Positions 7,951-59,469 of a stretch of DNA of 64,000 nucleotides are shown piece after piece. Position 1 is the first letter of the stretch. Each line of letters begins with the position of its first letter. The notes under the pieces were generated by a model. It was not told the origin of the DNA. It saw only the letters and a list, made by a program, of their open reading frames with translations, and did no database searches. The position numbers were made by a program, and so were the translations under genes. This DNA comes from an uncultured Chitinophagaceae bacterium (GTDB lineage: Bacteria; Planctomycetota; Planctomycetia; Pirellulales; UBA1268), in the NCBI GenBank assembly GCA_964600785.1, contig CAZRKH010000082.1, positions 8,858 through 72,857 on the forward strand, in the 5' to 3' direction.

Positions 7951-10245
7951 ATGATGGCAGGAATTCCGGTGGACTACCTCGAGGGACTCAACGAAGCCCA
8001 GCGGCAGGCCGCCTCGCATGTCGAGGGCCCGCTGCTGGTGCTCGCCGGACCCGGCAGCGGCAAGACACGCGTCGTGACTCACCGCATCGCCCACATGATC
8101 GCACGTGGCGTGCGGCCTGAATCGATCGTGGCCCTGACTTTCACCAACAAGGCGGCCGATGAGATGCGGCAGCGGCTTGCCGCGCTGACGGGCCCCCAGC
8201 CGGTCGAGATGGGGACCTTCCACCGCTTCGCCGCGAGGCTGCTGCGACGCAATGCCCGGTATGTCGGGCTGACGAGCGACTACTCGATTCTCGATCCTGA
8301 CGACGCCGGCTCGATGCTCAAGCGGGCCGCCAAGCGAGCCGGGGTGCCGCTGGCCCGGATCCCGGTGGCCCGCCTGGCCGGGGTGATCAGCCGGGCCAAA
8401 AACGACCTGGTGACGCCGGAATCCTTCGAGCCCCGCTGGGGCAGGCCGGTCGACGAGGTGGCAGCCAAGGTCTGGCCCGTCTATGCCGCCATGATGGTCG
8501 AGGCCAACTCGGTCGATTTCGACGATCTTCTGGTGCATCTCGCGAGGATGCTCCTCGAGCAGCCGCAGCTGCGCGGCACGCTCGATCTCCGCCATCGTTT
8601 CATTCTGGTCGACGAATACCAGGACACCAACGCCGCCCAATACTGCATCCTCCGCGGGCTCTCGATCGACCACCCCAACCTCGCGGTGACCGGTGATCCC
8701 GACCAGGCGATCTATGGCTGGCGGGGTGCGAGCATCCGCAACATCCTGGAGTTCGAGCGAGACTACCCCGATGCGACCGTCGTCACGCTCGAGCAGAACT
8801 ACCGCAGCACCGCCAACATTCTCGGCACCGCCGACCGGCTGATCGCCAACAACACCCGCCGCAAGCCGAAACGGCTGGTGACCGAATCGGATGCCGGCGC
8901 TGCGGTGCGGATCGTGCTCGATGAGAGCGGCCGCGAGGAGGCCGACCGGATCGCCGACGAGATCGCTGCGGCCGTGGCGACAGGTGGTCGTTCGCCCCGC
9001 GATTTCTGCATCCTCTTTCGCACCAATGCCCTCTCGCGTTCGGTCGAAGTGGCCCTCCGCAGCCGCGGGGTGCCCTACCAGCTGGTGCGGGGCCTGGAGT
9101 TCTTCAAGCGGCGGGAGATTCGCGACGTGGTCGCCTGGCTGCGGCTGCTGCACAACCCCCGGGACGACGAGGCCTTCCTGCGGGTGGTCAACGTCCCGCC
9201 GAGGGGAATCGGCAAGAAATCACTCGATGCACTCATCGCGGAGGCCGCCCGTCGGGGCCTGACGCTGCTGGAGGCCGCCGCCGAAGCCCGTTCACTGCCT
9301 GGCCTCTCGGCCCGGGCCGCGACCGCGGTTGTGGCGTTTGCCCGGCTGCATGCCGACCTCTCGATGGGAGCTTCGCGGGGTGTGGCAGAAACGGTGCGGG
9401 CGGTCCTCGATCGCAGCGGCTATCGGGCGATGCTCGAGGATGACGACGAGGAAGAGGGTGAGGATCGCCTGGCCAACGTTGAGGAACTCGTGACCGTGGC
9501 CGCTGAAATCGACGCGGAGTGCGGGGAGCAGCCGGGGCAGGGGGAGGCAATCGATCCTTTGGAGGCATTCCTCGAGCGGGTGTCGTTGGTGGGCGACACC
9601 GACCGCTGGGATGCCGCGGCTGAGCGGGTGTCGCTGATGACCTTTCATGCCGCCAAGGGGCTCGAGTTTCCGGAGGTCTATCTGGTGGCGATGGAGGACG
9701 GCATTCTGCCCCACGAGCGGAGCCTGGATCATCCCGAGCAGCTCGAGGAAGAGCGGCGGCTGGTGTTTGTCGGCATCACCCGGGCCCGCGAGGCGGTGCA
9801 TGCCAGTTGCGGTCGGGAACGCGACTACCGCGGCAGTCGCCGCGTGTCGGCCCCGAGCCTGTTTCTGGCGGAGATGTCAGGGGTGGAGACGGAACTCAGC
9901 GGCAGTGAGGCCCCGCATGGCGGCTTGGACGGCGATCCCTGGGCCGATGAGGCCTGCCAACTCCCCGAGGAGGAGCTGCGGCCGGCCCCCCGGCCCGCGC
10001 GGGCCCGCGTCGAGCGTGAGCAGCGGTCGGTGGCCGGCTTTGCCGAGAAACTCGCCGCCCTCGCCAAGCCGGTGGCTGCGGTCGAGCCCGGGCAGCGGGT
10101 CCGCCATGCGGAATACGGCGAGGGAACGGTCGAGCGGGTCGGCGGCACCGGCCCGAGGATGGTCGGCACCGTCCGCTTCGACGGCCCGGCCGGGCGGCGC
10201 ACGTTTATCCTCGCCCATGCCACGCTGGAAGCCCTCGACAGCTGA
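7951..10245 (+). CDS. uvrD: UvrD/PcrA superfamily 1 DNA helicase
   Basis: LAGPGSGKT, TFTNKAA, VDEYQD, GDPDQAIYGWRG, TFHAAKGLEF, EEERRL; C-terminal Tudor-like VRHAEYGEG. Confidence 0.95.
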   Translation: MMAGIPVDYLEGLNEAQRQAASHVEGPLLVLAGPGSGKTRVVTHRIAHMIARGVRPESIVALTFTNKAADEMRQRLAALTGPQPVEMGTFHRFAARLLRRNARYVGLTSDYSILDPDDAGSMLKRAAKRAGVPLARIPVARLAGVISRAKNDLVTPESFEPRWGRPVDEVAAKVWPVYAAMMVEANSVDFDDLLVHLARMLLEQPQLRGTLDLRHRFILVDEYQDTNAAQYCILRGLSIDHPNLAVTGDPDQAIYGWRGASIRNILEFERDYPDATVVTLEQNYRSTANILGTADRLIANNTRRKPKRLVTESDAGAAVRIVLDESGREEADRIADEIAAAVATGGRSPRDFCILFRTNALSRSVEVALRSRGVPYQLVRGLEFFKRREIRDVVAWLRLLHNPRDDEAFLRVVNVPPRGIGKKSLDALIAEAARRGLTLLEAAAEARSLPGLSARAATAVVAFARLHADLSMGASRGVAETVRAVLDRSGYRAMLEDDDEEEGEDRLANVEELVTVAAEIDAECGEQPGQGEAIDPLEAFLERVSLVGDTDRWDAAAERVSLMTFHAAKGLEFPEVYLVAMEDGILPHERSLDHPEQLEEERRLVFVGITRAREAVHASCGRERDYRGSRRVSAPSLFLAEMSGVETELSGSEAPHGGLDGDPWADEACQLPEEELRPAPRPARARVEREQRSVAGFAEKLAALAKPVAAVEPGQRVRHAEYGEGTVERVGGTGPRMVGTVRFDGPAGRRTFILAHATLEALDS

Positions 10246-30859: not shown

Positions 30860-30935
30860 TGGCAGGGGCGGCGGGAATCGAACTCGCAACCTCTGGTTTT
30901 GGAGACCAGCGCTCTGCCAATTGAGCTACGCCCCT
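30860..30935 (-). tRNA. tRNA-Trp (CCA)
   Basis: AGGGGCGTAGCTCAATTGG...CTCCAAA...GTTCGATTCCCGCCGCCCCTGCCA; CCA end encoded. Confidence 0.97.
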
Positions 30936-30955
30936 AGTGATTCCACTCTCCGATT

Positions 30956-32155
30956 CTACTCGATGATCTTGGTGACCACGCCGGAGCCGACCGTGCGGCC
31001 GCCCTCACGAATCGCAAAACGGACGCCGTCGTCCATGGCGATGGGCACCATCAACTCCACCTCCATCTTCACGTTGTCACCAGGCGAGACCATTTCCACG
31101 CCGCCGAGCAGCTTCGTCGTTCCGGTCACGTCGGTGGTCCGGAAGTAGAACTGCGGCCGGTAGCCGGCGAAGAAGGGCGTGTGGCGGCCCCCCTCCTCCT
31201 TGGCGAGCACGTAGACCTCGCACTCAAACTTCTTGTGGGGCTTGATCGAGCCCGGCTTGGCGAGAACCTGCCCGCGTTCGATCTCGTCGCGGGCCACACC
31301 GCGGAGCAGACAGCCCACGTTGTCGCCGGCCTGACCCGACTCGAGGATCTTCTTGAACATCTCGACGCCGGTGACGGTCGTCTTCTCGATCTTGTCGGAC
31401 AGGCCGATGATCTCGACCTCGTCACCGACCTTCACCACACCCCGCTCGATACGCCCGGTGGCCACGGTGCCGCGGCCCTCGATCGAGAAAACGTCTTCGA
31501 TCGCCATCAGGAAGGGCTTGTCGATCTCGCGGGCCGGCTCGGGGATGTAGCTGTCGATCGCGTCGAGCAGCTCGCCGATGCACTTGCTCGCCTCCGGATC
31601 GGCAGGGCTGTCGTAGGCCGGCTTGCCCGCCCCCCGAATGATCGGAATGTCGTCGCCCGGGAAGCCATACTTGGTGAGCAGTTCGCGGATTTCCATCTCG
31701 ACGAGGTCGAGCAGCTCTTCGTCGTCGACAAGGTCGACCTTGTTGAGGAAGACGACCAGAGCCGGAACGCCCACCTGCCGGGCGAGCAGGATGTGCTCCC
31801 GCGTCTGCGGCATCGGGCCGTCGGTGGCGCTGACCACCAGGATCGCCCCGTCCATCTGGGCGGCGCCGGTGATCATGTTCTTGATGAAGTCGGCGTGGCC
31901 GGGGCAGTCGATGTGGGCGTAGTGCCGCTTGTCGGTCTCGTATTCCACGTGACTGACCGCGATCGTCACCGTCTTCGTGTCGTCGCGGACCGTGCCACCC
32001 TTGGCGATGTCGGCGTAGCTCTTGGCCACGGCGAGGTCCTTGGCGGCCTGCACGGCCACCAGGGCGCCTGTGAGCGTGGTCTTCCCGTGGTCGATGTGGC
32101 CGATCGTGCCGACATTGACGTGGGGCTTGGTCCTCTCAAACGTATCCTTTGCCAT
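30956..32155 (-). CDS. tuf: Elongation factor Tu
   Basis: [39 protein letters not shown]. Confidence 0.99.
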
Positions 32156-32323
32156 GCTTTTTCCTCGGTTCTCTTCGCAGGGATTGCAGGACTTCGCCTG
32201 CTTCGGGTTTCGATCAACGGTCGTGACAGTCCGCCGGCGGAAACGCTCCGCCGGCTGTTCGGTTGGTTGTCTGGTCGGCCGCCTGGCGGCGGGTGCGGTT
32301 GGTTGTCGTGCCGGCCGCCGGAG

Positions 32324-32396
<73 letters not shown>

Positions 32397-32542
32397 AGCC
32401 GGGCGCACGGGACGGCCTCGGGTGTGGTTTGTGTGGTGTGTAGTGTCGTCGATTGTCTCGTCGTGTGTCTGCGTCGGTTGCGGAATTGCTCGTGTGTGCG
32501 GCTGGCGGTGAGGGGGGTGAGGAGGCAAGAGCGGCAGTCGAC

Positions 32543-32613
32543 AGCGGGTGAAGGGAATCGAACCCTCGTCTTTAGCTTGGAAGGCTATTGCTCTACCATT
32601 GAGCTACACCCGC
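32543..32613 (-). tRNA. tRNA-Gly (TCC)
   Basis: GCGGGTGTAGCTCAATGGTAGAGC...CTTCCAA...GTTCGATTCCCTTCACCCGCT. Confidence 0.97.
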
Positions 32614-32680
32614 GGTGGGTCGCCAACTCCGGCTCTCACAGCCCCGCCGCCTGCGGCCGGTGCTTCGCGGGGGCCGAGAG

Positions 32681-32763
32681 TGGGGAGTGCAGGATTCGAA
32701 CCTGCGAAGGCAGAAGCCATCAGATTTACAGTCTGACCCCTTTGACCGCTCGGGAAACTCCCC
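32681..32763 (-). tRNA. tRNA-Tyr (GTA)
   Basis: GGGGAGTTTCCCGAGCGGTCAAAGGG...CTGTAAA...long variable arm...GTTCGAATCCTGCACTCCCCA. Confidence 0.97.
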
Positions 32764-32961
32764 TGTTCGGATGTAGTGCCCTGCCGGACGCCCGGCATGA
32801 CGGGTATTCAGTTTGCTCACTCCGGAGCCGGGCCGGCTCCATCAAGATCGAATCCGCCGTCCTCCCGGAAATGACCACGACACGAGCCCGTTGGTTTGTA
32901 CGAAAATCCGGACGCTGTCGCGCCACCGCCGGCAGTGGGCAGCGGGAAGGCCTGACGAGTG

Positions 32962-33034
32962 AGCTAGCGGCGGGATTTGAACCCGCAACCTGCTGATTAC
33001 AAATCAGCTGCTCTGCCAGTTGAGCTACGCTAGC
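32962..33034 (-). tRNA. tRNA-Thr (TGT)
   Basis: GCTAGCGTAGCTCAACTGGCAGAGC...TTTGTAA...GTTCAAATCCCGCCGCTAGCT. Confidence 0.97.
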
Positions 33035-33136: not shown

Positions 33137-34354
33137 TCAGCGGAAGCTGACCTCCACCATCGAGAAGTCGTCGCTGAAGTCATCGCGTGCCGAGAGTTCG
33201 CGAATGTGGCCAAGGAGCCGGTCCATTCGGTTTTCCTGCGAGTTTTCCTGGGGTTTTTCCCGGTTCTCGAGCGGCCCGGCGAGGGTCGCCACAAACTCGT
33301 CGAAGGTCCACATTGAGCCGTCGGGGCGGCTCACCTCGAAGGCCCCGTCGCTATAGATAAAGAGCTTTGCCCCGGGGGGCACCACCACCTCCGCCGCCTC
33401 GAACTCGAGCCCCTCGACCGCCCCGATCAGGGGGCCGTCCGAGGTCAGCAGCTCAGGCTCGGCCCCATCGCCGGCGAGGAACACCGCCGGAGGATGGCCG
33501 CCTCCGGACCAGCGGAGCGTTCGGCTGGGGGCATCGTAAACCCCATACCAGATCGTGAAGAACATGTCGTTTTGCCGCTCCATCGGGAAGGCCCGATTGA
33601 GTGCTTCGAGCACCCCGCCGGGGTCGTGGAAGTCGGTCTGGGGCAGGGCCTCGCTCCGCAGGGCATTGAAAGCCGACACGCTCAACAGCGCCGCCCGCAC
33701 GCCGTGGCCGCAGACATCGAGCAGATAGAAGGCGGTGCGGTGCTCGTCGAGGGCGTGGTAGCCGAAGATGTCGCCGCCGAGTTCCGCCGATGGGATGAAT
33801 CGCCAGTCGGCGGTTGCCCCGCCGAGCGTCTGCGGCGGTGGCAGCAGCGATTGCACGTAGTTCGCCGCCGAAGCGAGGTCATCGGCGAGCGTCCGCTGGC
33901 TGGCCTGGAGGGCCTCGAAGGCCGCGTTTCGCTCGACGAGGGCCACATACCCACGGGAGTGGTAGCGGATGCGGGCGATCAGTTCCAGCGGGTCGGGCAG
34001 CTTCACGATGTAGTCGTTGGCCCCCAGGGCAAAGGCCTCGGCCTTGACCGTCGGCTCTTCCCGGGCCGAGAGCACGATGATCGGCACGTCCTGCAGCCGC
34101 TCGTTGGCCCGAAACTCGCGAACCAGATCAAGTCCATCGACGTCCGGCATCACAAGGTCTTGCAGGATCACCGTCGGCCCCAACGCCTCGGCGGCCTCCA
34201 GGGCGGCCTTGGCGTCGTCGCAGAAGTGGAATTCGATCCCCTCCTCCGCGGCCACCATGCGGCGGACCGCCTCACCGATGATCCGCTGGTCATCGACGAG
34301 CAGCACGCGGGCTCGGTCGAGCGATGTTGGTGAGGCGGAGGAGGTGGATGGCAT
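33137..34354 (-). CDS. Response regulator receiver fused to a PP2C/SpoIIE phosphatase
   Basis: VLLVDD, LQDLVMP, DYIVK; LGGD, DVCGHG, YSDG, SDD. Confidence 0.92.
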   Translation of the reverse strand: MPSTSSASPTSLDRARVLLVDDQRIIGEAVRRMVAAEEGIEFHFCDDAKAALEAAEALGPTVILQDLVMPDVDGLDLVREFRANERLQDVPIIVLSAREEPTVKAEAFALGANDYIVKLPDPLELIARIRYHSRGYVALVERNAAFEALQASQRTLADDLASAANYVQSLLPPPQTLGGATADWRFIPSAELGGDIFGYHALDEHRTAFYLLDVCGHGVRAALLSVSAFNALRSEALPQTDFHDPGGVLEALNRAFPMERQNDMFFTIWYGVYDAPSRTLRWSGGGHPPAVFLAGDGAEPELLTSDGPLIGAVEGLEFEAAEVVVPPGAKLFIYSDGAFEVSRPDGSMWTFDEFVATLAGPLENREKPQENSQENRMDRLLGHIRELSARDDFSDDFSMVEVSFR

Positions 34355-34449: not shown

Positions 34450-34902
34450 CTACCGCGGCAGGCTTCGCTTCGGGCGGCAGGCGGGCTCGGCCGCCAGCGA
34501 AAACACGATCACCTCCTCACCGGTGACGGTCGAGATGTCGTGGTGCACGCTGACAAGCGAAACGCCGGCCGCCTCACGCACGATGCACTCCAGGCGGAAG
34601 CGTCCGATGGCCACCATGTGGCTGCGAACCTGCTTGAGCAGGGCGCGGCCGTTGGTCTCGTCGCCGGCGTGACCATTGCCGTTGTGGCTCGGGTCGGCCG
34701 GTGCGTCTGCCGCGTTGGCGGGCCGTGCATGCGGGACAAGCAGCTGTCGTTCGGCGGCCGAGAGGGCGCCTTGGAGCCGCACGACCAGCAGCGTGCCGAG
34801 CAAATGGGAACGGATGTCCTGGGGGCCGCGACCGATAAATTCCTGATGGAACTTCGAGATGCCGTCGCAGACCGCCGCCTCGATCTCACCTTGGGATTTC
34901 AT
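34450..34902 (-). CDS. DUF2294 (MpsC-like) family protein
   Basis: SQGEIEAA..GRGPQDIR..LSAAERQL..GRALLKQVR..HHDISTVTGEEVIVFSL. Confidence 0.88.
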   Translation of the reverse strand: MKSQGEIEAAVCDGISKFHQEFIGRGPQDIRSHLLGTLLVVRLQGALSAAERQLLVPHARPANAADAPADPSHNGNGHAGDETNGRALLKQVRSHMVAIGRFRLECIVREAAGVSLVSVHHDISTVTGEEVIVFSLAAEPACRPKRSLPR

Positions 34903-35030: not shown

Positions 35031-35264
35031 TCAGCGTCGCAGTACGCCGCCGGTCGCAGCCTTCCGCGGCTCGGGAGCCGGCTGGCCGTTGCGGATGCGA
35101 TCCCACACCTCGCGGCGATGGATCGGCATCTTGTTGTCCGCCTCGAAGCCGAGCCGCACGCGGCCGCCTTCGATTTCCAGGATCGTGATCTCGAGCACGA
35201 CCTCGAGGTCTTCGGCGCGGCCGATGACCACGCTCTCTCGGTTCTTCCGGGTCAGCACCAGCAT
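35031..35264 (-). CDS. csrA: Carbon storage regulator CsrA/RsmA
   Basis: MLVLTRK..ESVVIG...VRLGFEA...IHRREV. Confidence 0.93.
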   Translation of the reverse strand: MLVLTRKNRESVVIGRAEDLEVVLEITILEIEGGRVRLGFEADNKMPIHRREVWDRIRNGQPAPEPRKAATGGVLRR

Positions 35265-35310: not shown

Positions 35311-35817
35311 TCAGCTGCTTGCGGCACCGGTGCCGCCCGCTCCTTGGACACGCACGCCCTCGGCATGCATGTGTGCATCGACCGGCACACCGAGCAGCGG
35401 CAGGCCCCTGCCGAGCAGGAACAGCTCCACCGTCGGTGCGGTCGTGAATGTTTTGAGCACGCTGTGGGTCGTGCCATCGACATGGGCGATGCCGCCGCGG
35501 AGTTCCACGCCCGCTGAATCGCGGAGATGGCTGCGAAAGGCATCGAAGGAATTCTCGAAGAGATAGCGGTGAAAATCCTCGATCTTGCCGAGGCCGCCAT
35601 CGGTATCGGCGAGGTCTGCTTCGAGTGGTGAAAATCGCTCGTGCAGGGTGACCACCAGGGAGGACCCGCTGGCCACGACCGTCACGCTCACCGGCGACCG
35701 TCCGGTGAGCAGGTGTTCGAATGTTCCCGCGGCCTGCGCGACACATCGGGCAATCCGTTGATTCATCGGGTTGCGGTCGGCAGGTTTTCGGCCGGCCTTT
35801 TCGGTTCTCGGTGGCAT
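35311..35817 (-). CDS. Divergent DUF2294-like protein
   Basis: TGRSPVSVTVV..LVVTLH..SPLEADLA..IEDFHRYLF pattern; start 35817 or 35766 (the ORF-track start lies inside the terminator). Confidence 0.7.
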   Translation of the reverse strand: MPPRTEKAGRKPADRNPMNQRIARCVAQAAGTFEHLLTGRSPVSVTVVASGSSLVVTLHERFSPLEADLADTDGGLGKIEDFHRYLFENSFDAFRSHLRDSAGVELRGGIAHVDGTTHSVLKTFTTAPTVELFLLGRGLPLLGVPVDAHMHAEGVRVQGAGGTGAASS

Positions 35818-35883: not shown

Positions 35884-36002
35884 AACAAAAAAAGCCGACG
35901 GGAGTGGTTGCCCGGAGGCACACACTCACGCCGGCTTACGCTGCGATGGACCCTCCGGCCGGCTGGCCGAACTGCCCCTCGACTCGTCTTCCGTCAGGAG
36001 TT
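35884..36002 (-). promoter_or_regulatory. Candidate attenuator/riboswitch leader RNA, copy A
   Basis: CTCC..CGGAAGACG...CGTAAGCCGGCGTGAG...CGTCGGCTTTTTTTGTTG; same blocks as 49914-50037. Confidence 0.75.
35887..35937 (-). terminator. Intrinsic terminator in the leader of the DUF2294-csrA operon
   Basis: AAGCCGGCG/CGTCGGCTT, GAGTG/CACTC and TGCC/GGCA stems followed by U7. Confidence 0.85.
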
Positions 36003-36336
36003 CGTTCCGTGTCGCTTTGAGTCAGCCGACCGCAGCAAGGCGGTTGTCATCAGCAACGCGACGGCGGCGATAATAACCCGGAAAGATGGGCAACGCAAGC
36101 AGGCGGGGGAGCCTGCGTGGATTGTGCGGTTTGCTGCTGAAGGCCGTGGTTGCGGATGCGGGCCGGACAGTTGTGCAAAGTCGGCGTGACCTGCGCAGGC
36201 GGAACTCCGAGCCGTTCGGTCAAGGCGACCGGCTCGCCAACCCGAAGCAAATCGCCAGAGGCAACACCCCCCACATAGAGGGGTTTCTACAACGAGGCGT
36301 GTCGTGCCGGCCGTTCTCAACAGCAGGAGCCCACCC

Positions 36337-36771
36337 ATGCCACGCAGCCAGGAGCCGACGCCTCCCGCGGAGAATGGCCGCCACCGCAGCCAGGGCGAGA
36401 TCGAGGCCGCAATCTGCGACGTCGTCTCCCGCTTCCAGCAGGAATACATGGGCCGCGGACCAAGGGATGTCCGCACCCATCTCGTCGACAACAGGCTCTT
36501 TGTCCACATGCAGGGGGTGCTCACCGCCGCCGAGCAGCGACTGATGGACTCGCATGCCAACGGCAACGGCCGGGGGGCGGAAATCCTCAAGGCTTTTCGC
36601 AGCCATCTTGTCGCCGCGGGCCGTCCTTTGCTCGAGAAACTCGTCGAGAGCGTGACGGGTTCCCAGCCGATCAACGTGCACCATGACATCAGCGCCGTGA
36701 CGGGCGAGGAGGTGATCGTGTTCACGCTCTCATCGCCGCCGGCCTGCAGAGACCGGCGGCGTCGGGGCTGA
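36337..36771 (+). CDS. DUF2294 (MpsC-like) family protein
   Basis: SQGEIEAAICD..YMGRGPRDVR..LTAAEQRL..HHDISAVTGEEVIVFTL; AGGAG RBS; paralog of 34450-34902. Confidence 0.88.
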   Translation: MPRSQEPTPPAENGRHRSQGEIEAAICDVVSRFQQEYMGRGPRDVRTHLVDNRLFVHMQGVLTAAEQRLMDSHANGNGRGAEILKAFRSHLVAAGRPLLEKLVESVTGSQPINVHHDISAVTGEEVIVFTLSSPPACRDRRRRG

Positions 36772-37041
36772 GGCCCGCAGGTTCTTGTGAACGATCCCAA
36801 TCGGAAGCCGATGGCGTTCGGCTTCTCTGGCCGGCGGCGGCGTCCGGGGGTGGTTGCGGCACTCTCGGTCCCGTCGCCGGCCCTCTTTGTCGCTCCCGGT
36901 TTGCCCGCGACAATCGGTGAAACCACGGTCCTCGTCCGTGGCCGGGAATCGCCGGTTGCAACCCTGGCCGCCGCGTCGTTGAATCGATGGCGATCCGCCG
37001 TGAACAACGCGGCCGTCCTTCGCCCCCCGGACGCTCCTCCC

Positions 37042-39506
37042 GTGTCGCAGCCTGCCGCCCCGCCGCCGGCCACACCCGTCGACTTCGAGGGGCTCGGGGT
37101 GTTTTACATGGGTGAGCGGGTCGATCCTGACTCGGGTCGTGGCCTCGCCGAGCCGGTGCTCCTCAAGGCCAAGCGGCTGTGCACCCATGCGGTCTGCGTG
37201 GGCATGACCGGCAGCGGCAAGACGGGCCTCCTGGTGGGCCTGCTCGAGGAGGCCGCCCTCGACGGCATCCCCGCGGTGGTGATCGACCCCAAGGGCGACC
37301 TCGGCAGTCTGCTGCTCTCCTTTCCCGACCTCGCCCCGGAAAGCTTCCGGCCATGGGTCGATCCCGATGCGGCTCGCCGCGAAGGACTCTCGGTGGAGGA
37401 GCTCGCCGGGCAGACGGCCGCCCGCTGGAGCGAGGGCCTGGCCGCCTCCGGACAGTCGGCCGAACGCATCGCCCGTCTCCGGCAAAGCGTCGAGATGGCG
37501 ATCTACACCCCCGGCAGCCGGGCCGGCCGACCGCTGGCGATGCTCGGCAGCCTCGACCCGCCGACCGAGGCGGTCCGCAACGACCCGGAGCGGCTCCGCG
37601 AGCGGCTCGACTCGGTGGCTTCGGGCATTCTGGCCCTGGCCGGCATCGACGCCGAACCGGGCCGCAGCCGCGAGCATGTGCTGCTGTGCACCGTGATCGA
37701 CGCACTCTGGAAGACGGGCCGTCCGCTGAGCCTTGGCGAACTGATTCGGGCCCTGCCGGCGCCGCCGGTGGAGCGGGTCGGCTTCTTTGAACTGGAGCAC
37801 TTCTACCCCGCCGCCGACCGGTTCGAATTGGCCGGCCGGCTGAATTTGGTCGCCGCCTCGCCCGGTTTTGAGGCCCGGCTCGAGGGGGAGCCGGCCGACA
37901 TTGGGCGGCTGCTGTGGACCCCCGCGGGCCGGCCGCGGGTGAGTATTGTCTCGATCGCCCATCTCTCCGACGCCGAACGGATGGCGTTTGTCACGCTGCT
38001 CGCCGGTCAGGCCGTCTCCTGGATGCGGTCGCAGCGGGGCACCTCGTCGCTGCGGGCGATCTTCATGATGGACGAGGTCTTCGGCTACCTGCCGCCCTCG
38101 GCCAACCCGCCGAGCAAACTGCCGATGCTGACGCTGCTCAAGCAGGCCCGAGCCTTCGGCCTGGGCGTCGTACTGGCCACGCAGAATCCGGTCGACCTCG
38201 ACTACAAGGGCCTCTCCAACGCCGGCACCTGGTTTCTGGGCCGGCTGCAGACCGCGCGAGACAAGGCCCGCGTGGTCGACGGGCTCGAAGGGGCCGCGGC
38301 AGCCGCCGGCGACACGCTCGACCGCGGCCGGCTCGACCGGCTGCTCTCGGGACTCGGCAGTCGCACCTTCCTGCTGCACAGCGTGCACGACGATGACGAG
38401 ACCGTCTTCCGCACCCGCTGGACGCTCTCCTACCTGCGGGGACCGCTGGCCCGCGAGGAGATTGCCAGGCTCACCCCCAGGGCCGAGCCGGCTGCCGCAG
38501 CCGAGCCGCCCGCGACGGGCAATGATCGTCCGGCTGGCTCGTCCGGCGGGCCGCGGCCGGTCCTGCCGCCGGGAGTGCGGGAGGTCTTTCTCGCCCCCGC
38601 CGAGCCTCCGATTGGGGCGGTCCTCTACCGCCCTGCCCTCTATGGCCGGGGAAGGATTCGCTTCGCGACCGCCGACGGGGCAGACGGCGGAATCGACATC
38701 AGCCGGCAGTTCGACCTGCTCGCCCCGGCCCCCGAGCAGGCCGCCGACGCCTGGCGGAATGCGGCGGCCCTCGACGAGGGGCCGATGCTGGAGCCTTCCG
38801 CCCGAGAGGGCGACTTCGCTTCGCTGCCTTCGATCCTTGCCGGGCCCAAGGGGCAGGCCTCGCTTGCTACAAGCTTGGCGACGCACCTGGCCCGCACCGG
38901 CCGCCTGCGGCTGTGGAGGTCGGAGCATGCCTCGTCGCTCTCGCGGCCGGGAGAATCCGAAACCGACTATCGCCTGCGGATCGCCCAGGAGGTGCGGGAG
39001 GCCCGCGATGCGGCCATCGAGAAACTACGTGAACGTCATGCGACACAACTCGACCGGCTCGCCGTGAGGATCGACAAGGCCCGGCAGAAGCTCGATCGCG
39101 AACGATCGGCGGCCCGGGGCGGCAGCGTTGCTTCGTGGGTCTCGGTGGGGGTGGCGATTTACGACGTGCTCCGCGGACGTGGTGGCAGCCGCGGGCTCGA
39201 CAAGGTCTCGACCTCGGTGAAGTCGGCCACCAAGGCCTCGCAGCAGCAGGCTGAGGTGACGGCGATGGAGGAGAACATCGACTCGCTCATCGAAGAATCG
39301 GCCCTGCTGCGGGAGGCGATCGAGCGGGAAGTCCGCGGCATCCGCGACGCGATCGATCCCCTCACGATGCCCCTCGAGCCGGTCGAGATCACGCCCCGCA
39401 GTGGCGACGTGGCCGTCGAGGAGGTGGCCATCGCCTGGGTGCCGGATGACCCTGCCGCGGTGATCGCGAGGCTTCGCGAACGCGACACACCGGGCGGACA
39501 GGTCTG

Positions 39507-39507
<1 letters not shown>
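37042..39507 (+). CDS. HerA/FtsK-like ATPase (DUF87/DUF853 type) with a C-terminal coiled coil
   Basis: VGMTGSGKT, VIDPKGD, MDEVFG, LATQNP; start uncertain. Confidence 0.85.
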
Positions 39508-48469: not shown

Positions 48470-49867
48470 ATGGAACGGATTACGGATGGTCGAGAACGGT
48501 GGCGGGCTCAGCGGCGATGGACTCCGCGGATTTTTGTCGATTGCACGCAGTCGCTCGAGTGCCGTGTGCGGCAGGGGATTCCCCGGGTCGTTCGCGAGCT
48601 GGTGCGGCAGGGGCGGCCGGCTGCGCGTCGTCTCGGTGCCGAACTCGTCGCGGTGCGATGGCATGCCGGCAGGTTTTTCCCGGTGGGTCTGCGGGGTGAC
48701 ACGCTGCCGTCGCGATCGTCTCGGGGGGATTGCTCGCTGGGAGAACGGGCGTGCCGGCGGCTTCGTAAGGCCACGCCGCGGAAGCTTCGCCGAATCATGG
48801 GGAAGGCGGTAGAGATCGGGGCGGCGGCGTTGCGACGGGAGATCAGGCCCACGGCCGGTGACATTCTGCTGCTGCCCGACTCCACCTGGGACCGCCCGAT
48901 CTGGGAGGCGGTCGACCGGGCCCGTGACGCCGGTGCGAGCCTGGGGGTGCTCCAGCACGATTTCATCCCGCTAAATCACCCTGAGCTGGTGCCTGAGGAG
49001 ACTGTCGGCCGCTTCGCGACCTGGATGAACGAGTCGCTCTCACGGGCTGATTTTCTGCTCGCGGTGTCGCAGACGATCGCGGAGGAGGCCCGCGCGGAAC
49101 TGCTCAAGCTCGGCCGCGGCCACGTCGCCGCCAAGCGTGTCACCGTCTGCCCCAATGGAGCCGATTTTCACACCTGCTCCCCACGGTCAGGGCTGCGGCC
49201 ACAGGTGCTCGCAGCCCTCGCACGGGGCCGGCCTTTCCTCGTCGTGGGCACGGTCGAGCCGCGGAAAAATCAGGGCCTGCTCGTCGATGCGATCGACCGG
49301 GTGCTCGCCGACTGCCCCGATGCCAGCTTCCTGGTGGTGGGAGCGGTCGGCTGGCGTGGGGAGGAGATCGTACGAAGCATGCGGTCACACGCCGCCTGGG
49401 GCCGGTCGCTTCTGCACCATGACGACTTCAGCGACTACGAACTCGACGCGGCCTACCGGCATGCCAGGGCGGTCGTGGTGCCGTCGCTCGCCGAGGGCTA
49501 CGGGCTGCCTGTCGTGGAGGCGCTTGCCCGCAACACGCCCGTGATTGCCTCTGACCTGCCCGTGCTGCGGGAGGTTGGCGGGAATCGCTGCGACTACTTC
49601 GACCCCCACGACCCGGCAAGCCTCGCGGAGCGGTTGCTCGGCCTCGTTCACCGGCCCCGACCGGTCGCGGCCCCCGATCCGACCGCGGCGATGCCGACCT
49701 GGCGGCGAATGGCCCGCCGAGTCGTGGTGGCCGCCGCGGCGGAGGCGGCTGCGGCGCGGCGTGAGGCGACCGCCCGGAGGAAGGTGTCCGACCGGCCGGA
49801 CCGCGAACAACGCGGGGTTTTCCCGCTGCGGGTGAGCGTGGCTTGCCCCGCGCGTCGCGCCGCGTGA
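48470..49867 (+). CDS. GT4-family glycosyltransferase
   Basis: HDFIP, VGTVEPRKN, PSLAEGYGLPVVEAL. Confidence 0.9.
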   Translation: MERITDGRERWRAQRRWTPRIFVDCTQSLECRVRQGIPRVVRELVRQGRPAARRLGAELVAVRWHAGRFFPVGLRGDTLPSRSSRGDCSLGERACRRLRKATPRKLRRIMGKAVEIGAAALRREIRPTAGDILLLPDSTWDRPIWEAVDRARDAGASLGVLQHDFIPLNHPELVPEETVGRFATWMNESLSRADFLLAVSQTIAEEARAELLKLGRGHVAAKRVTVCPNGADFHTCSPRSGLRPQVLAALARGRPFLVVGTVEPRKNQGLLVDAIDRVLADCPDASFLVVGAVGWRGEEIVRSMRSHAAWGRSLLHHDDFSDYELDAAYRHARAVVVPSLAEGYGLPVVEALARNTPVIASDLPVLREVGGNRCDYFDPHDPASLAERLLGLVHRPRPVAAPDPTAAMPTWRRMARRVVVAAAAEAAAARREATARRKVSDRPDREQRGVFPLRVSVACPARRAA

Positions 49868-49913: not shown

Positions 49914-50037
49914 GGCTCCGAGATTGTTTCGGAAGACGGATTGTCGGGTCGCCCGCCTGCGGAGCCCCGACACGACGTAGGCCGGCGTGAGACGTTCTCC
50001 CCACTGGGGCGGGCTCTTGCGGCGGCCTTTTTTGTTG
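49914..50037 (+). promoter_or_regulatory. Candidate attenuator/riboswitch leader RNA, copy B
   Basis: CTCC..CGGAAGACG (49930-49938)...CGTAGGCCGGCGTGAG...CGGCCTTTTTTGTTG. Confidence 0.75.
49979..50033 (+). terminator. Intrinsic terminator in the leader of the PEP-CTERM gene
   Basis: AGGCCG/CGGCCT, CGTGAGA/TCTTGCG and CCCC/GGGG stems followed by U6. Confidence 0.8.
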
Positions 50038-50144
50038 CGCGGTTGTCGCGTGGTCCCAGGGCCGGGCCGCGTGGATTGGGCAGGGATCGTCAATGTTCAC
50101 TCATGTTCTCAAAAGCCGTCTGCGGACGGCCCCGGAGGTGTCTC

Positions 50145-50900
50145 ATGAGTTTCAGCGATCTCGTCGATTGTCTCATAAGCCGGCGTCGGCCTGTTGGCCG
50201 CTTCGGCCGAGCCGTGGCTTTTCTCGCCAGCCTGCTCTGCGTCTTGTCATGTGCCTGGCGGGCCGGCCAGGCGATCGCCGCTCCGGTGTTCACCGTCACC
50301 GGCGGCACCACGGTGCTCACGTCGCTGGAAACCTTTCTCTGGGTGACTCCTCGTTTCAACGGGGATGTTCTGCTCTGGGAGCAGGGCGTGATCGGTCTCT
50401 TGGAGCCGGGCAAGGTCTCAATCGAGTATGTCGGGAAGGAAGCCTTCTATGCCGACAACATCTTCCGCTGGGACGGGATTGACATCTTCTCCACCGGTCC
50501 CTCGTCGCCGTTGATCGCAGGCCAGACGGCGGCCACGCCCTTCCCGCCGTTGCCGCTGGCGACCTACGAGGTGCCGGGCGTCGTGCCGGCCGGGCCGCTG
50601 CCGCTGAGCTTCTTCATTTCGGAAACCTCCAAGGCGGTGCCCAATGACGGCAACCCCGACATCGCCTACTGGCCGCTCCCCACCGACATCAGCAGCAATC
50701 CCTACGACCTCGGCTCGGTGGTCTACGTGATGCTCGATGATGCAGACCCGGTCGATACCGACCACGACGACATGATCGTCCAGCTCTCGGTGGTCACGCC
50801 GCCGGTGCCCGAGCCGAGGTCACTTGGCCTGGCCGTGGTGGGAATCCTGCCGCTCGCCGGCTGGATGCTCCACCGACGGCGGGGCCGGCTCAGCGGTTGA
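50145..50900 (+). CDS. PEP-CTERM exosortase-sorted surface protein
   Basis: Signal peptide; C-terminal VPEP + TM + RRRGR; DDADPVDTDHDDMIV acidic motif; start 50103 or 50145. Confidence 0.85.
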   Translation: MSFSDLVDCLISRRRPVGRFGRAVAFLASLLCVLSCAWRAGQAIAAPVFTVTGGTTVLTSLETFLWVTPRFNGDVLLWEQGVIGLLEPGKVSIEYVGKEAFYADNIFRWDGIDIFSTGPSSPLIAGQTAATPFPPLPLATYEVPGVVPAGPLPLSFFISETSKAVPNDGNPDIAYWPLPTDISSNPYDLGSVVYVMLDDADPVDTDHDDMIVQLSVVTPPVPEPRSLGLAVVGILPLAGWMLHRRRGRLSG

Positions 50901-59394: not shown

Positions 59395-59469
59395 TCGGGG
59401 CGGAGAGATTCGAACTCTCGACCTCCTGGTCCCAAACCAGGCGCGCTAGCCAAACTGCGCCACGCCCCG
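59395..59469 (-). tRNA. tRNA-Pro (TGG)
   Basis: CGGGGCGTGGCGCAGTTTGGCTAGCGCG...TTTGGGA...GTTCGAATCTCTCCGCCCCGA. Confidence 0.97.

Follow-up and report, generated by a model that had tools for sequence, protein, structure and literature searches.

A covarying leader RNA that overlaps an intrinsic terminator recurs upstream of DUF2294/MpsC and other genes in Pirellulales

We analyzed a 64,000-nucleotide (nt) stretch of an uncultured member of the Pirellulales (Planctomycetota), comprising positions 8,858 to 72,857 of contig CAZRKH010000082.1 in assembly GCA_964600785.1 (2.83 Mb, 143 contigs, 68% G+C), which we refer to as the window. Our focus is a leader RNA on its minus strand at 35993-35887 (copy A), in which an irregular hairpin of ~62 nt is joined to an intrinsic terminator. 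Copy A sits in a divergent intergenic region, with DUF2294/MpsC genes on both sides. It belongs to a large family of Pirellulales leader RNAs that precede many genes and extend well beyond the two copies of the window. The features at this locus are:

36304-36771, plus strand: canonical DUF2294/MpsC gene ("A-type"; Pfam PF10057, E=9.7e-31), divergent, with its intergenic region in common with copy A
36070-36098, minus strand: candidate sigma-70-type promoter of copy A, TTGCGT at 36098-36093, 17-nt spacer, TATTAT at 36075-36070
35932-35993, minus strand: sensor hairpin of copy A, with helix P1 formed by CGG 35993-35991 and CCG 35934-35932, and helices P2 and P3 inside
35987-35985 with 35940-35938, minus strand: helix P1b of copy A, ACG with CGU, separated from P1 by a 3x3 loop AAG/AAG
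35887-35935, minus strand: intrinsic terminator of copy A, made up of a long G+C-rich hairpin (35935-35894) and the U7 run after it (35893-35887); the hairpin opens with GCCG, the same bases that form the 3' strand of P1
35311-35817, minus strand: first gene after copy A, DUF2294/MpsC, 168 amino acids (PF10057, E=6e-06), the predicted regulated gene
35031-35264, minus strand: csrA paralogue of the same operon, 77 amino acids (PF02599, E=1.3e-17)
34450-34902, minus strand: second DUF2294/MpsC gene of the operon (PF10057, E=3.4e-25)
33137-34354, minus strand: response-regulator receiver with PP2C (SpoIIE) phosphatase (PF00072, PF07228)

An earlier, sequence-only reading of this DNA had proposed the gene order DUF2294-csrA-DUF2294 downstream of copy A, and the Pfam matches confirm it. 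Judged by strand and spacing, the receiver-PP2C gene is possibly the last gene of the same operon. A GGAG sequence at 35826-35823 lies 5 nt before the ATG of the first DUF2294 gene at 35817.

The same reading had pointed to two short blocks around an insert as the core of a structured RNA. Direct reading of the minus strand places all of them where it had put them: CGG-AAG-ACG at 35993-35985, a 44-nt insert at 35984-35941 that contains the hairpin UUCGGCC/GGCCGGA, and CGU-AAG-CCG at 35940-35932. When we folded the nascent transcript up to CCG with RNAfold, we obtained CGG/CCG, the 3x3 loop, ACG/CGU and the inner hairpin (-29.9 kcal/mol), exactly the pairing that had been proposed. One further block, CTCC upstream of P1, did not survive. 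In copy A, RNAfold extends P1 with this block, but alignment columns 1-5 are unconserved in 134 homologues. Two covariance models, R1 (built from 28 aligned copies) and R2 (built from 83 sequences), match copy A at 35926-35999 on the minus strand with 73.9 and 72.7 bits, respectively. In the full leader, the complete terminator fold reaches -56.3 kcal/mol vs -48.5 kcal/mol with P1 enforced, and in the latter fold the hairpin left over is shorter and several nucleotides removed from the U-run. These energies, and the bases that both folds share, indicate that the sensor fold and the terminator compete for GCCG.

The second copy that the earlier reading had reported (copy B) carries the same blocks and lies on the plus strand, at 49930-50033:

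49930-49984, plus strand: sensor hairpin of copy B ("type 2", with 3' loop AGG), from RNAfold and the covariance model
49980-50033, plus strand: terminator of copy B, hairpin at 49980-50027 and U6 at 50028-50033
50145-50900, plus strand: secreted protein after copy B, 251 amino acids, with a PEP-CTERM-like C-terminus (translation of the open reading frame)

The preceding glycosyltransferase gene ends at 49867. The covariance models match copy B at 49924-49990 (plus strand) with 64.3 bits (R1) and 58.0 bits (R2), and a terminator scan lists the top of its hairpin followed by the T-run. Its full leader behaves like that of copy A, with -55.0 kcal/mol for the complete terminator vs -45.3 kcal/mol with P1 enforced. 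Both copies are more stable than shuffled sequences (z = -3.39 and -2.45). The pattern CGGAAGAC-N20-50-GTARGCCGG has exactly 2 matches in the window vs 0.00 expected from 100 shuffles. The protein encoded after copy B has no Pfam family at E<=0.01, and its gene is not a DUF2294 gene; because the Pfam search was empty, the PEP-CTERM-like label is our own reading of its C-terminal motif. A third copy lies elsewhere in the genome (G000:C118, 8700-8761, minus strand). We also observed that type-2 leaders of the host family (the taxonomic family of the window genome) carry a second conserved hairpin (GCGCCGA...GUCGGCGC) directly after the U-run and ahead of the start codons of the genes for secreted proteins; we saw it at 50034-50060 of the window and at four other loci (L019, L021, L022 and L024).

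How far does the family extend? In a first pattern scan, 20 of 61 related genomes carried the blocks, including 18 of the 36 within the host family, with inner stems that differ clearly among copies; the reversed pattern, used as a control, gave 0-2 matches per genome. About 7 matches of the pattern fell within coding sequence by chance (L002, L009, L023 and L025 among them) and were excluded from the alignments. RNAalifold on 28 copies returned 14 pairs, 8 of them with compensatory changes. Searching 151 genomes of the host family with R1 at E<=0.001, we found about 290 matches in 113 genomes, which represent 63/81 high-quality genomes and 11/12 genera. The order-level sample, searched with R1 at E<=0.01, was positive in 49/151 genomes, 36/95 genera and 21/30 families (our own count), with 1-9 matches per positive genome that are often clustered. 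Across the phylum, R2 matched 4/150 other genomes, one from another order of the class and three from other classes.

Several observations on distribution stand on their own. At one place two complete leaders, both with a terminator of their own, follow each other in tandem at a distance of 58 nt ahead of a single gene (L077:1501-1698, the same as L142:5219-5416), and other arrays comprise 2-3 leaders spaced 300-600 nt apart, each ahead of a small open reading frame. Five genomes of the same genus (G001-G005) have no motif (0/5), and only 1/5 has a DUF2294 match, a weak one, vs 3 motifs and 4 DUF2294 matches in the window genome; the explanation is either a joint loss or gain of motif and DUF2294 or a loose assignment to the genus. 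A near-perfect palindrome, CTGTTCAAATGAACAG, recurs among genomes of family f8; it lies ~40 nt upstream of several leaders (L141, L126, L089 and L130) and looks like an operator for a DNA-binding regulator.

An alignment of 134 distinct copies describes a rod-like hairpin of ~62-70 nt. Its outer part consists of P1, (U)CGG/CCG(A), a 3x3 purine loop with A-W-G opposite A-A-G, and P1b, ACN/NGU. Further in lie a second purine-rich loop, P2 with a conserved A/G.G mismatch, a CAR/NGG loop and P3. The consensus reads U-CGG-AWG-ACN-AGN-YRA-R-GRG-CAR-YC..P3..GG-NGG-YYC-G-UYR-MMG-NGU-AAG-CCG-R. Over 20 pairs, 93.2% of the alignment cells can pair, vs 22.6-55.3% when the partners are slid, and in an alignment of 83 sequences the values are 97.0% vs 19.8-50.3%; both alignments were fitted to the covariance model, which favours the structure. 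Fourteen of the 20 pairs change on both sides, and the covariation score of 0.379, vs 0.195 in shuffles, was reached by 0/500 shuffles. The third pair of P1b illustrates this, alternating between U-A (76 copies), G-C (50) and C-G (1). A conserved structured RNA, as the earlier reading had suspected, is therefore strongly supported by covariation in the two alignments. Ten positions are essentially invariant: G8, G90, U91, A92, C95 and G97 in 134/134 copies, and G9, A13, C14 and C96 in 133/134. Five more (A10, G12, G25, G74 and G81) each exceed 93%. We considered two further ideas and rejected both. A leader peptide is hinted at by an order-level consensus AUG-ACU-AGA-UAA, but the U of AUG occurs in only 56/134 copies; a pseudoknot with the apical loop does not fit a loop that varies in length and sequence.

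The terminator is almost as widespread as the sensor hairpin. A hairpin with a U-run follows 122 of 133 distinct copies (median free energy -29.65 kcal/mol), and the spacing between CCG and the U-run varies remarkably little (median 42 nt). One more copy (L145), which has an internal T-run, was not counted among the 122 by our script. In 119/122 copies the CCG of the P1 3' strand is fully paired inside the terminator hairpin. Together with the constrained folds of copies A and B, this bears out the claim that the 3' block is common to P1 and a strong terminator and that the two folds are mutually exclusive. In 131/133 copies, a co-oriented open reading frame of at least 38 amino acids starts 38-450 nt beyond the model match, in a search of the same strand only. 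A covarying structure, a 5' leader position and a mutually exclusive terminator, three of the features that define a terminating riboswitch or attenuator, are thus present.

Promoter-like sites occur upstream, and their distance from P1 is conserved. Outside the host family, TANNNT boxes concentrate 19-21 nt upstream of P1 (17/82 copies), and sites with at least 9/12 consensus matches place the end of a -10 box 8-20 nt upstream of P1 (12/80 copies). Boxes this close would put the RNA start just before P1. Among type-1 copies of the host family, 27 of 34 homologues have a promoter-like site with at least 9/12 matches, mostly TTGCGT-16-TATAAT, whose -10 box ends 61-70 nt (20 copies) or ~87 nt (5 copies) upstream of P1. 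The TTGCGT-17-TATTAT of the window fits this type-1 pattern. It has 8/12 consensus matches, counted by eye, and a strict promoter and terminator scanner therefore left the candidate out, reporting nothing at copy A.

An element that carries its own terminator need not be a switch. From P1 to the U-run it measures ~115 nt and resembles a complete small transcription unit; its terminator is far more stable than P1, and copies occur in arrays spaced 300-600 nt. It could be an independent small RNA whose 3' end is set by this terminator, a constitutive attenuator, or a stability or processing element. We consider this very unlikely, given the co-oriented reading frame just downstream of nearly every copy (131/133, in a search limited to the same strand), the precise and conserved overlap between P1 and the base of the terminator, and the conserved purine loop beside P1.

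Most probably the leader acts as a transcription attenuator that is OFF by default and is switched ON once an effector stabilizes P1 and the purine loop, a direction of switching that we infer from the architecture. The 3' strand of P1 would serve as the first 4-5 nt of the ~42-nt terminator hairpin, which runs into the U-run. With P1 weak and the terminator strong, the default outcome would be termination (OFF). If an effector locked P1 and the adjacent loop in place, the terminator would lack its basal pairs and no longer adjoin the U-run, and the polymerase would read through (ON). The earlier proposal of an ON switch is consistent with this arrangement, in that a P1 whose 3' strand is shared with the terminator would give read-through when stabilized.

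We then asked which genes the leaders precede. Two of the 133 distinct leaders have too little downstream sequence, which leaves 131 open reading frames, and after 2 repeats, which arose where neighbouring leaders share one reading frame, were dropped we scanned 129 with Pfam. The downstream gene was taken as the best same-strand reading frame after each leader, and the sample over-represents the top-scoring type-1 copies of the host family. These 129 first reading frames contain 49 Pfam families in total. By far the most frequent is MpsC/DUF2294 (PF10057), with 51/129, followed by Response_reg and PEP-CTERM (PF07589) with 5 each, Ice_binding and histidine kinase/PAS with 3 each, and phosphoketolase, fatty-acid desaturase, CsrA, BON and DUF2934 with 2 each; G6PD, AI-2E transporter, fasciclin, transglutaminase and others occur once each. 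Judged by these annotations, the genes behind the leaders appear to form a coherent group, made up of regulators, secreted proteins and proteins of stress type. The sequence-only reading had suggested a link to bicarbonate, Na+ or mpsAB, which we dropped: no such transporter or other gene of this kind is found among the 25 of 49 families listed for these reading frames.

A gene set of such breadth resembles the regulons of second-messenger riboswitches, and the same switch could respond to a small molecule or ion, for example a stress second messenger or a cation. The leader would then be an orphan riboswitch class, and DUF2294 merely its commonest target. Its anatomy is typical of riboswitches, with the ten invariant nucleotides all in P1, P1b and the adjoining loops, stems that covary, and a terminator that overlaps P1 in 119/122 copies. 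Up to 9 copies per genome, the tandem leaders 58 nt apart, the 49 Pfam families among 129 reading frames and three motif-bearing genomes in which DUF2294 is undetectable all fit as well. However, the families listed (25 of 49) include no transporter, biosynthetic or degradative gene set that points to a ligand, a simple unbranched hairpin is a less common shape for an aptamer, and a ligand would leave unexplained the tight and conserved divergent pairing with a DUF2294 gene. We regard a small-molecule effector as a serious if tentative possibility.

That pairing can be quantified. A local hidden Markov model finds DUF2294 downstream of 33/51 leaders in the host family and of 23/83 others. Among 122 leaders with at least 700 nt of upstream sequence, 46 have a divergent DUF2294 gene within 1 kb upstream, and these are concentrated where DUF2294 also follows the leader (38/53, vs 8/69 of the rest). 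In a genome from another class (G373), a divergent DUF2294 gene adjoins the motif though the downstream gene is not DUF2294. By our own count in the 151 host-family genomes, motif and DUF2294 occur together in 104, the motif only in 9, DUF2294 only in 5 and neither in 33; the corresponding numbers for the 151 genomes of the order sample are 43, 6, 13 and 89. As a pointer to a trans-acting role for DUF2294, this association is suggestive.

CsrA genes accompany the leaders as well. At 33/51 leaders of the host family and 18/83 others, a csrA gene occurs no more than 1.5 kb downstream on the same strand, often directly after DUF2294 and, at several loci where we compared reading-frame coordinates, only a few bases from it. 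All 151 genomes of the order sample encode CsrA, with 2-17 matches each, an unusually large expansion of paralogues in Pirellulales. CsrA recognizes GGA, its target leaders typically carrying at least two such motifs in hairpin loops, and a paralogue that bound the invariant 5' CGGA (and, where it occurs, the GGAGG on the 3' side of P3) would block P1 and so favour the terminator, making the operon negatively autoregulated and repressing the other targets. Several features are in keeping with this: G8, G9 and A10 are invariant or nearly so, 56/134 copies read GGAUG, 70/134 have a second GGA (GG-A-GG, column 73 = A), and 51/134 leaders control an operon with a csrA paralogue, in an order where the protein is universal. 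Yet CsrA is equally present in the 102 order-sample genomes that have no motif, so its presence is nothing specific; its binding needs neither an extended conserved structure nor conserved loop nucleotides other than GGA; and the second GGA is absent from about half of the copies. Attenuation by CsrA alone therefore seems unlikely to us.

As effector we rank a locus-encoded protein slightly ahead of a small molecule. The candidate is DUF2294/MpsC, of which one gene lies divergently upstream ("A") and another is the first regulated gene ("B"), and which may act with the CsrA paralogue directly after DUF2294-B; the outcome would be an autoregulated stress and cell-surface regulon. We put the probability of an attenuator with such an effector (DUF2294, perhaps with CsrA), as suggested by gene arrangement, at roughly 40%. 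We predicted the structure of DUF2294 with AlphaFold and obtained a model of two helix-plus-beta-hairpin units (predicted local distance difference test score 82). A search of the ESM Atlas gave no usable match, and a complex prediction of a CsrA dimer with DUF2294 scored 0.00, which speaks neither for nor against binding.

A number of results weigh against DUF2294 as the effector or against parts of the switch model. The DUF2294 model has no significant structural neighbour in the PDB (best E=0.12, template modelling score <0.5 for the matches checked), a sequence search of the PDB gave nothing below E 0.09, and the isoelectric points of 25 members range from 4.5 to 9.5, no sign of RNA binding. 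Outside the host family, 51/83 leaders have no DUF2294 nearby. Three genomes, G069 (95% complete), G282 (96%) and G348 (89%), have motif matches and no PF10057 match at E<=0.1. Related genomes are dependent and many leaders are attached to a DUF2294 gene, so the co-occurrence is partly trivial. As for the RNA itself, ten copies, all of type 2 in the host family, lack a U-run and must therefore work differently, or not by termination. The outer U-A pair of P1 fails in 31/134 copies. The CGG/CCG core of P1 never varies, so covariation speaks neither for nor against it; its invariance would be explained by the P1 3' strand doubling as a terminator strand. Finally, the anatomy (loop nucleotides, covarying stems, terminator overlap and tandem copies) fits a small-molecule riboswitch equally well.

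Comparison with known systems places the leader among several classes without a full match to any. Terminator-coupled riboswitches such as nhaA-I, DUF1646 and sul1 are simple hairpins with conserved internal loops. Our leader resembles them in its 5' position, its conserved loops and covarying stems, the 3' strand of a basal helix that enters the terminator, and several copies per genome; it differs in matching no Rfam 15 model and in having no ion-transporter genes among the 25 of 49 target families listed. Protein-dependent antitermination leaders, namely the ribonucleic antiterminator (RAT) of the BglG/SacY type and those of PyrR and HutP, provide a second comparison. As in RAT/BglG-type leaders, a weak imperfect hairpin lies over the 5' side of a strong terminator and would need a factor to persist, and the controlled operon contains or adjoins the gene for a candidate regulator, with the logic of autoregulation. 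Here, however, no RNA-binding fold is known for the candidate, DUF2294/MpsC, and the RNA is about twice the length of a RAT. The target leaders of CsrA/RsmA share the invariant 5' GGA and the csrA paralogues in regulated operons, but our GGA is at the junction of P1 and its loop within a long conserved structure rather than in the loop of a short hairpin, and the order has CsrA in every genome sampled but the motif only in some.

Two other RNA types were set aside. An ANTAR target has a pair of short hairpins in tandem, with loops of six nucleotides, and its second hairpin overlaps a terminator; the motif is a single long hairpin whose apical loop varies in length and sequence. A kink-turn has an asymmetric 3-nt bulge followed by tandem G.A/A.G pairs, whereas the loop beside P1 is, by inspection, a symmetric 3x3 with A-W-G opposite A-A-G.

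The earlier reading had recognized no known riboswitch and proposed an Rfam scan as a check, which likewise finds no family that matches the motif at gathering thresholds or at E<=10. With Rfam 15 (4227 models) at gathering thresholds, the whole window yields tRNAs only, and copies A and B at E<=10 give only chance-level microRNA, small nucleolar RNA and small RNA matches far below their thresholds. Twenty loci with order-level copies returned a single tRNA and a single match to Acido-Lenti-1, both away from the motif, and one order-level copy searched at E<=10 gave nothing relevant. The Acido-Lenti-1 match (RF01687; L066:2840-2884, 39.6 bits vs a gathering threshold of 37) lies ~1.3 kb downstream of a Pirellulales leader. 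In the window, a cluster of five tRNA genes occupies 30863-33034 (minus strand), just downstream of the DUF2294-csrA operon region, with another tRNA at 59395-59469 (minus strand), and the divergent DUF2294 gene is followed at 36787-39507 (plus strand) by a gene for a 906-amino-acid protein with HerA/TrwB-like P-loop matches.

The family is uncatalogued in Rfam 15. A table in Weinberg et al. 2010 (PMC2864571) lists "Rhodopirellula-1" as a possible cis-regulatory element of Planctomycetes and Proteobacteria, with no Rfam accession and as uncertain to be an RNA; going by that table description, it may be the same motif. In the portions of the literature available to us, we found no description of the motif, and no Pirellulales riboswitch or leader beyond that one unexplained 2010 table entry (PMC2864571). 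We likewise found no link between the leader regulon and the stress genes reported by Wecker et al. 2009, as far as these are given in the accessible text (PMC2754498).

What these leaders could mean depends on the effector. It is tempting to speculate that DUF2294/MpsC is an unrecognized family of RNA-binding antiterminators with a dedicated CsrA paralogue, which would run a planctomycete general-stress and cell-surface regulon by attenuation and not by sigma factors. We think this rather unlikely in its full extent; equally novel would be a riboswitch of a new class that senses a stress signal molecule. Little is understood of how Planctomycetes regulate their genes, and here is a leader element that is abundant and structurally well supported. 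To our knowledge, DUF2294/MpsC has no known function. The leader offers a handle on this orphan family and ties it to the strikingly expanded CsrA paralogues. A single attenuator mechanism may account for the joint switch-on of many unlinked genes. With a metabolite as effector, the leader would represent a riboswitch class of a new kind; with DUF2294 in that role, the novelty would lie in a new type of RNA-binding regulator.

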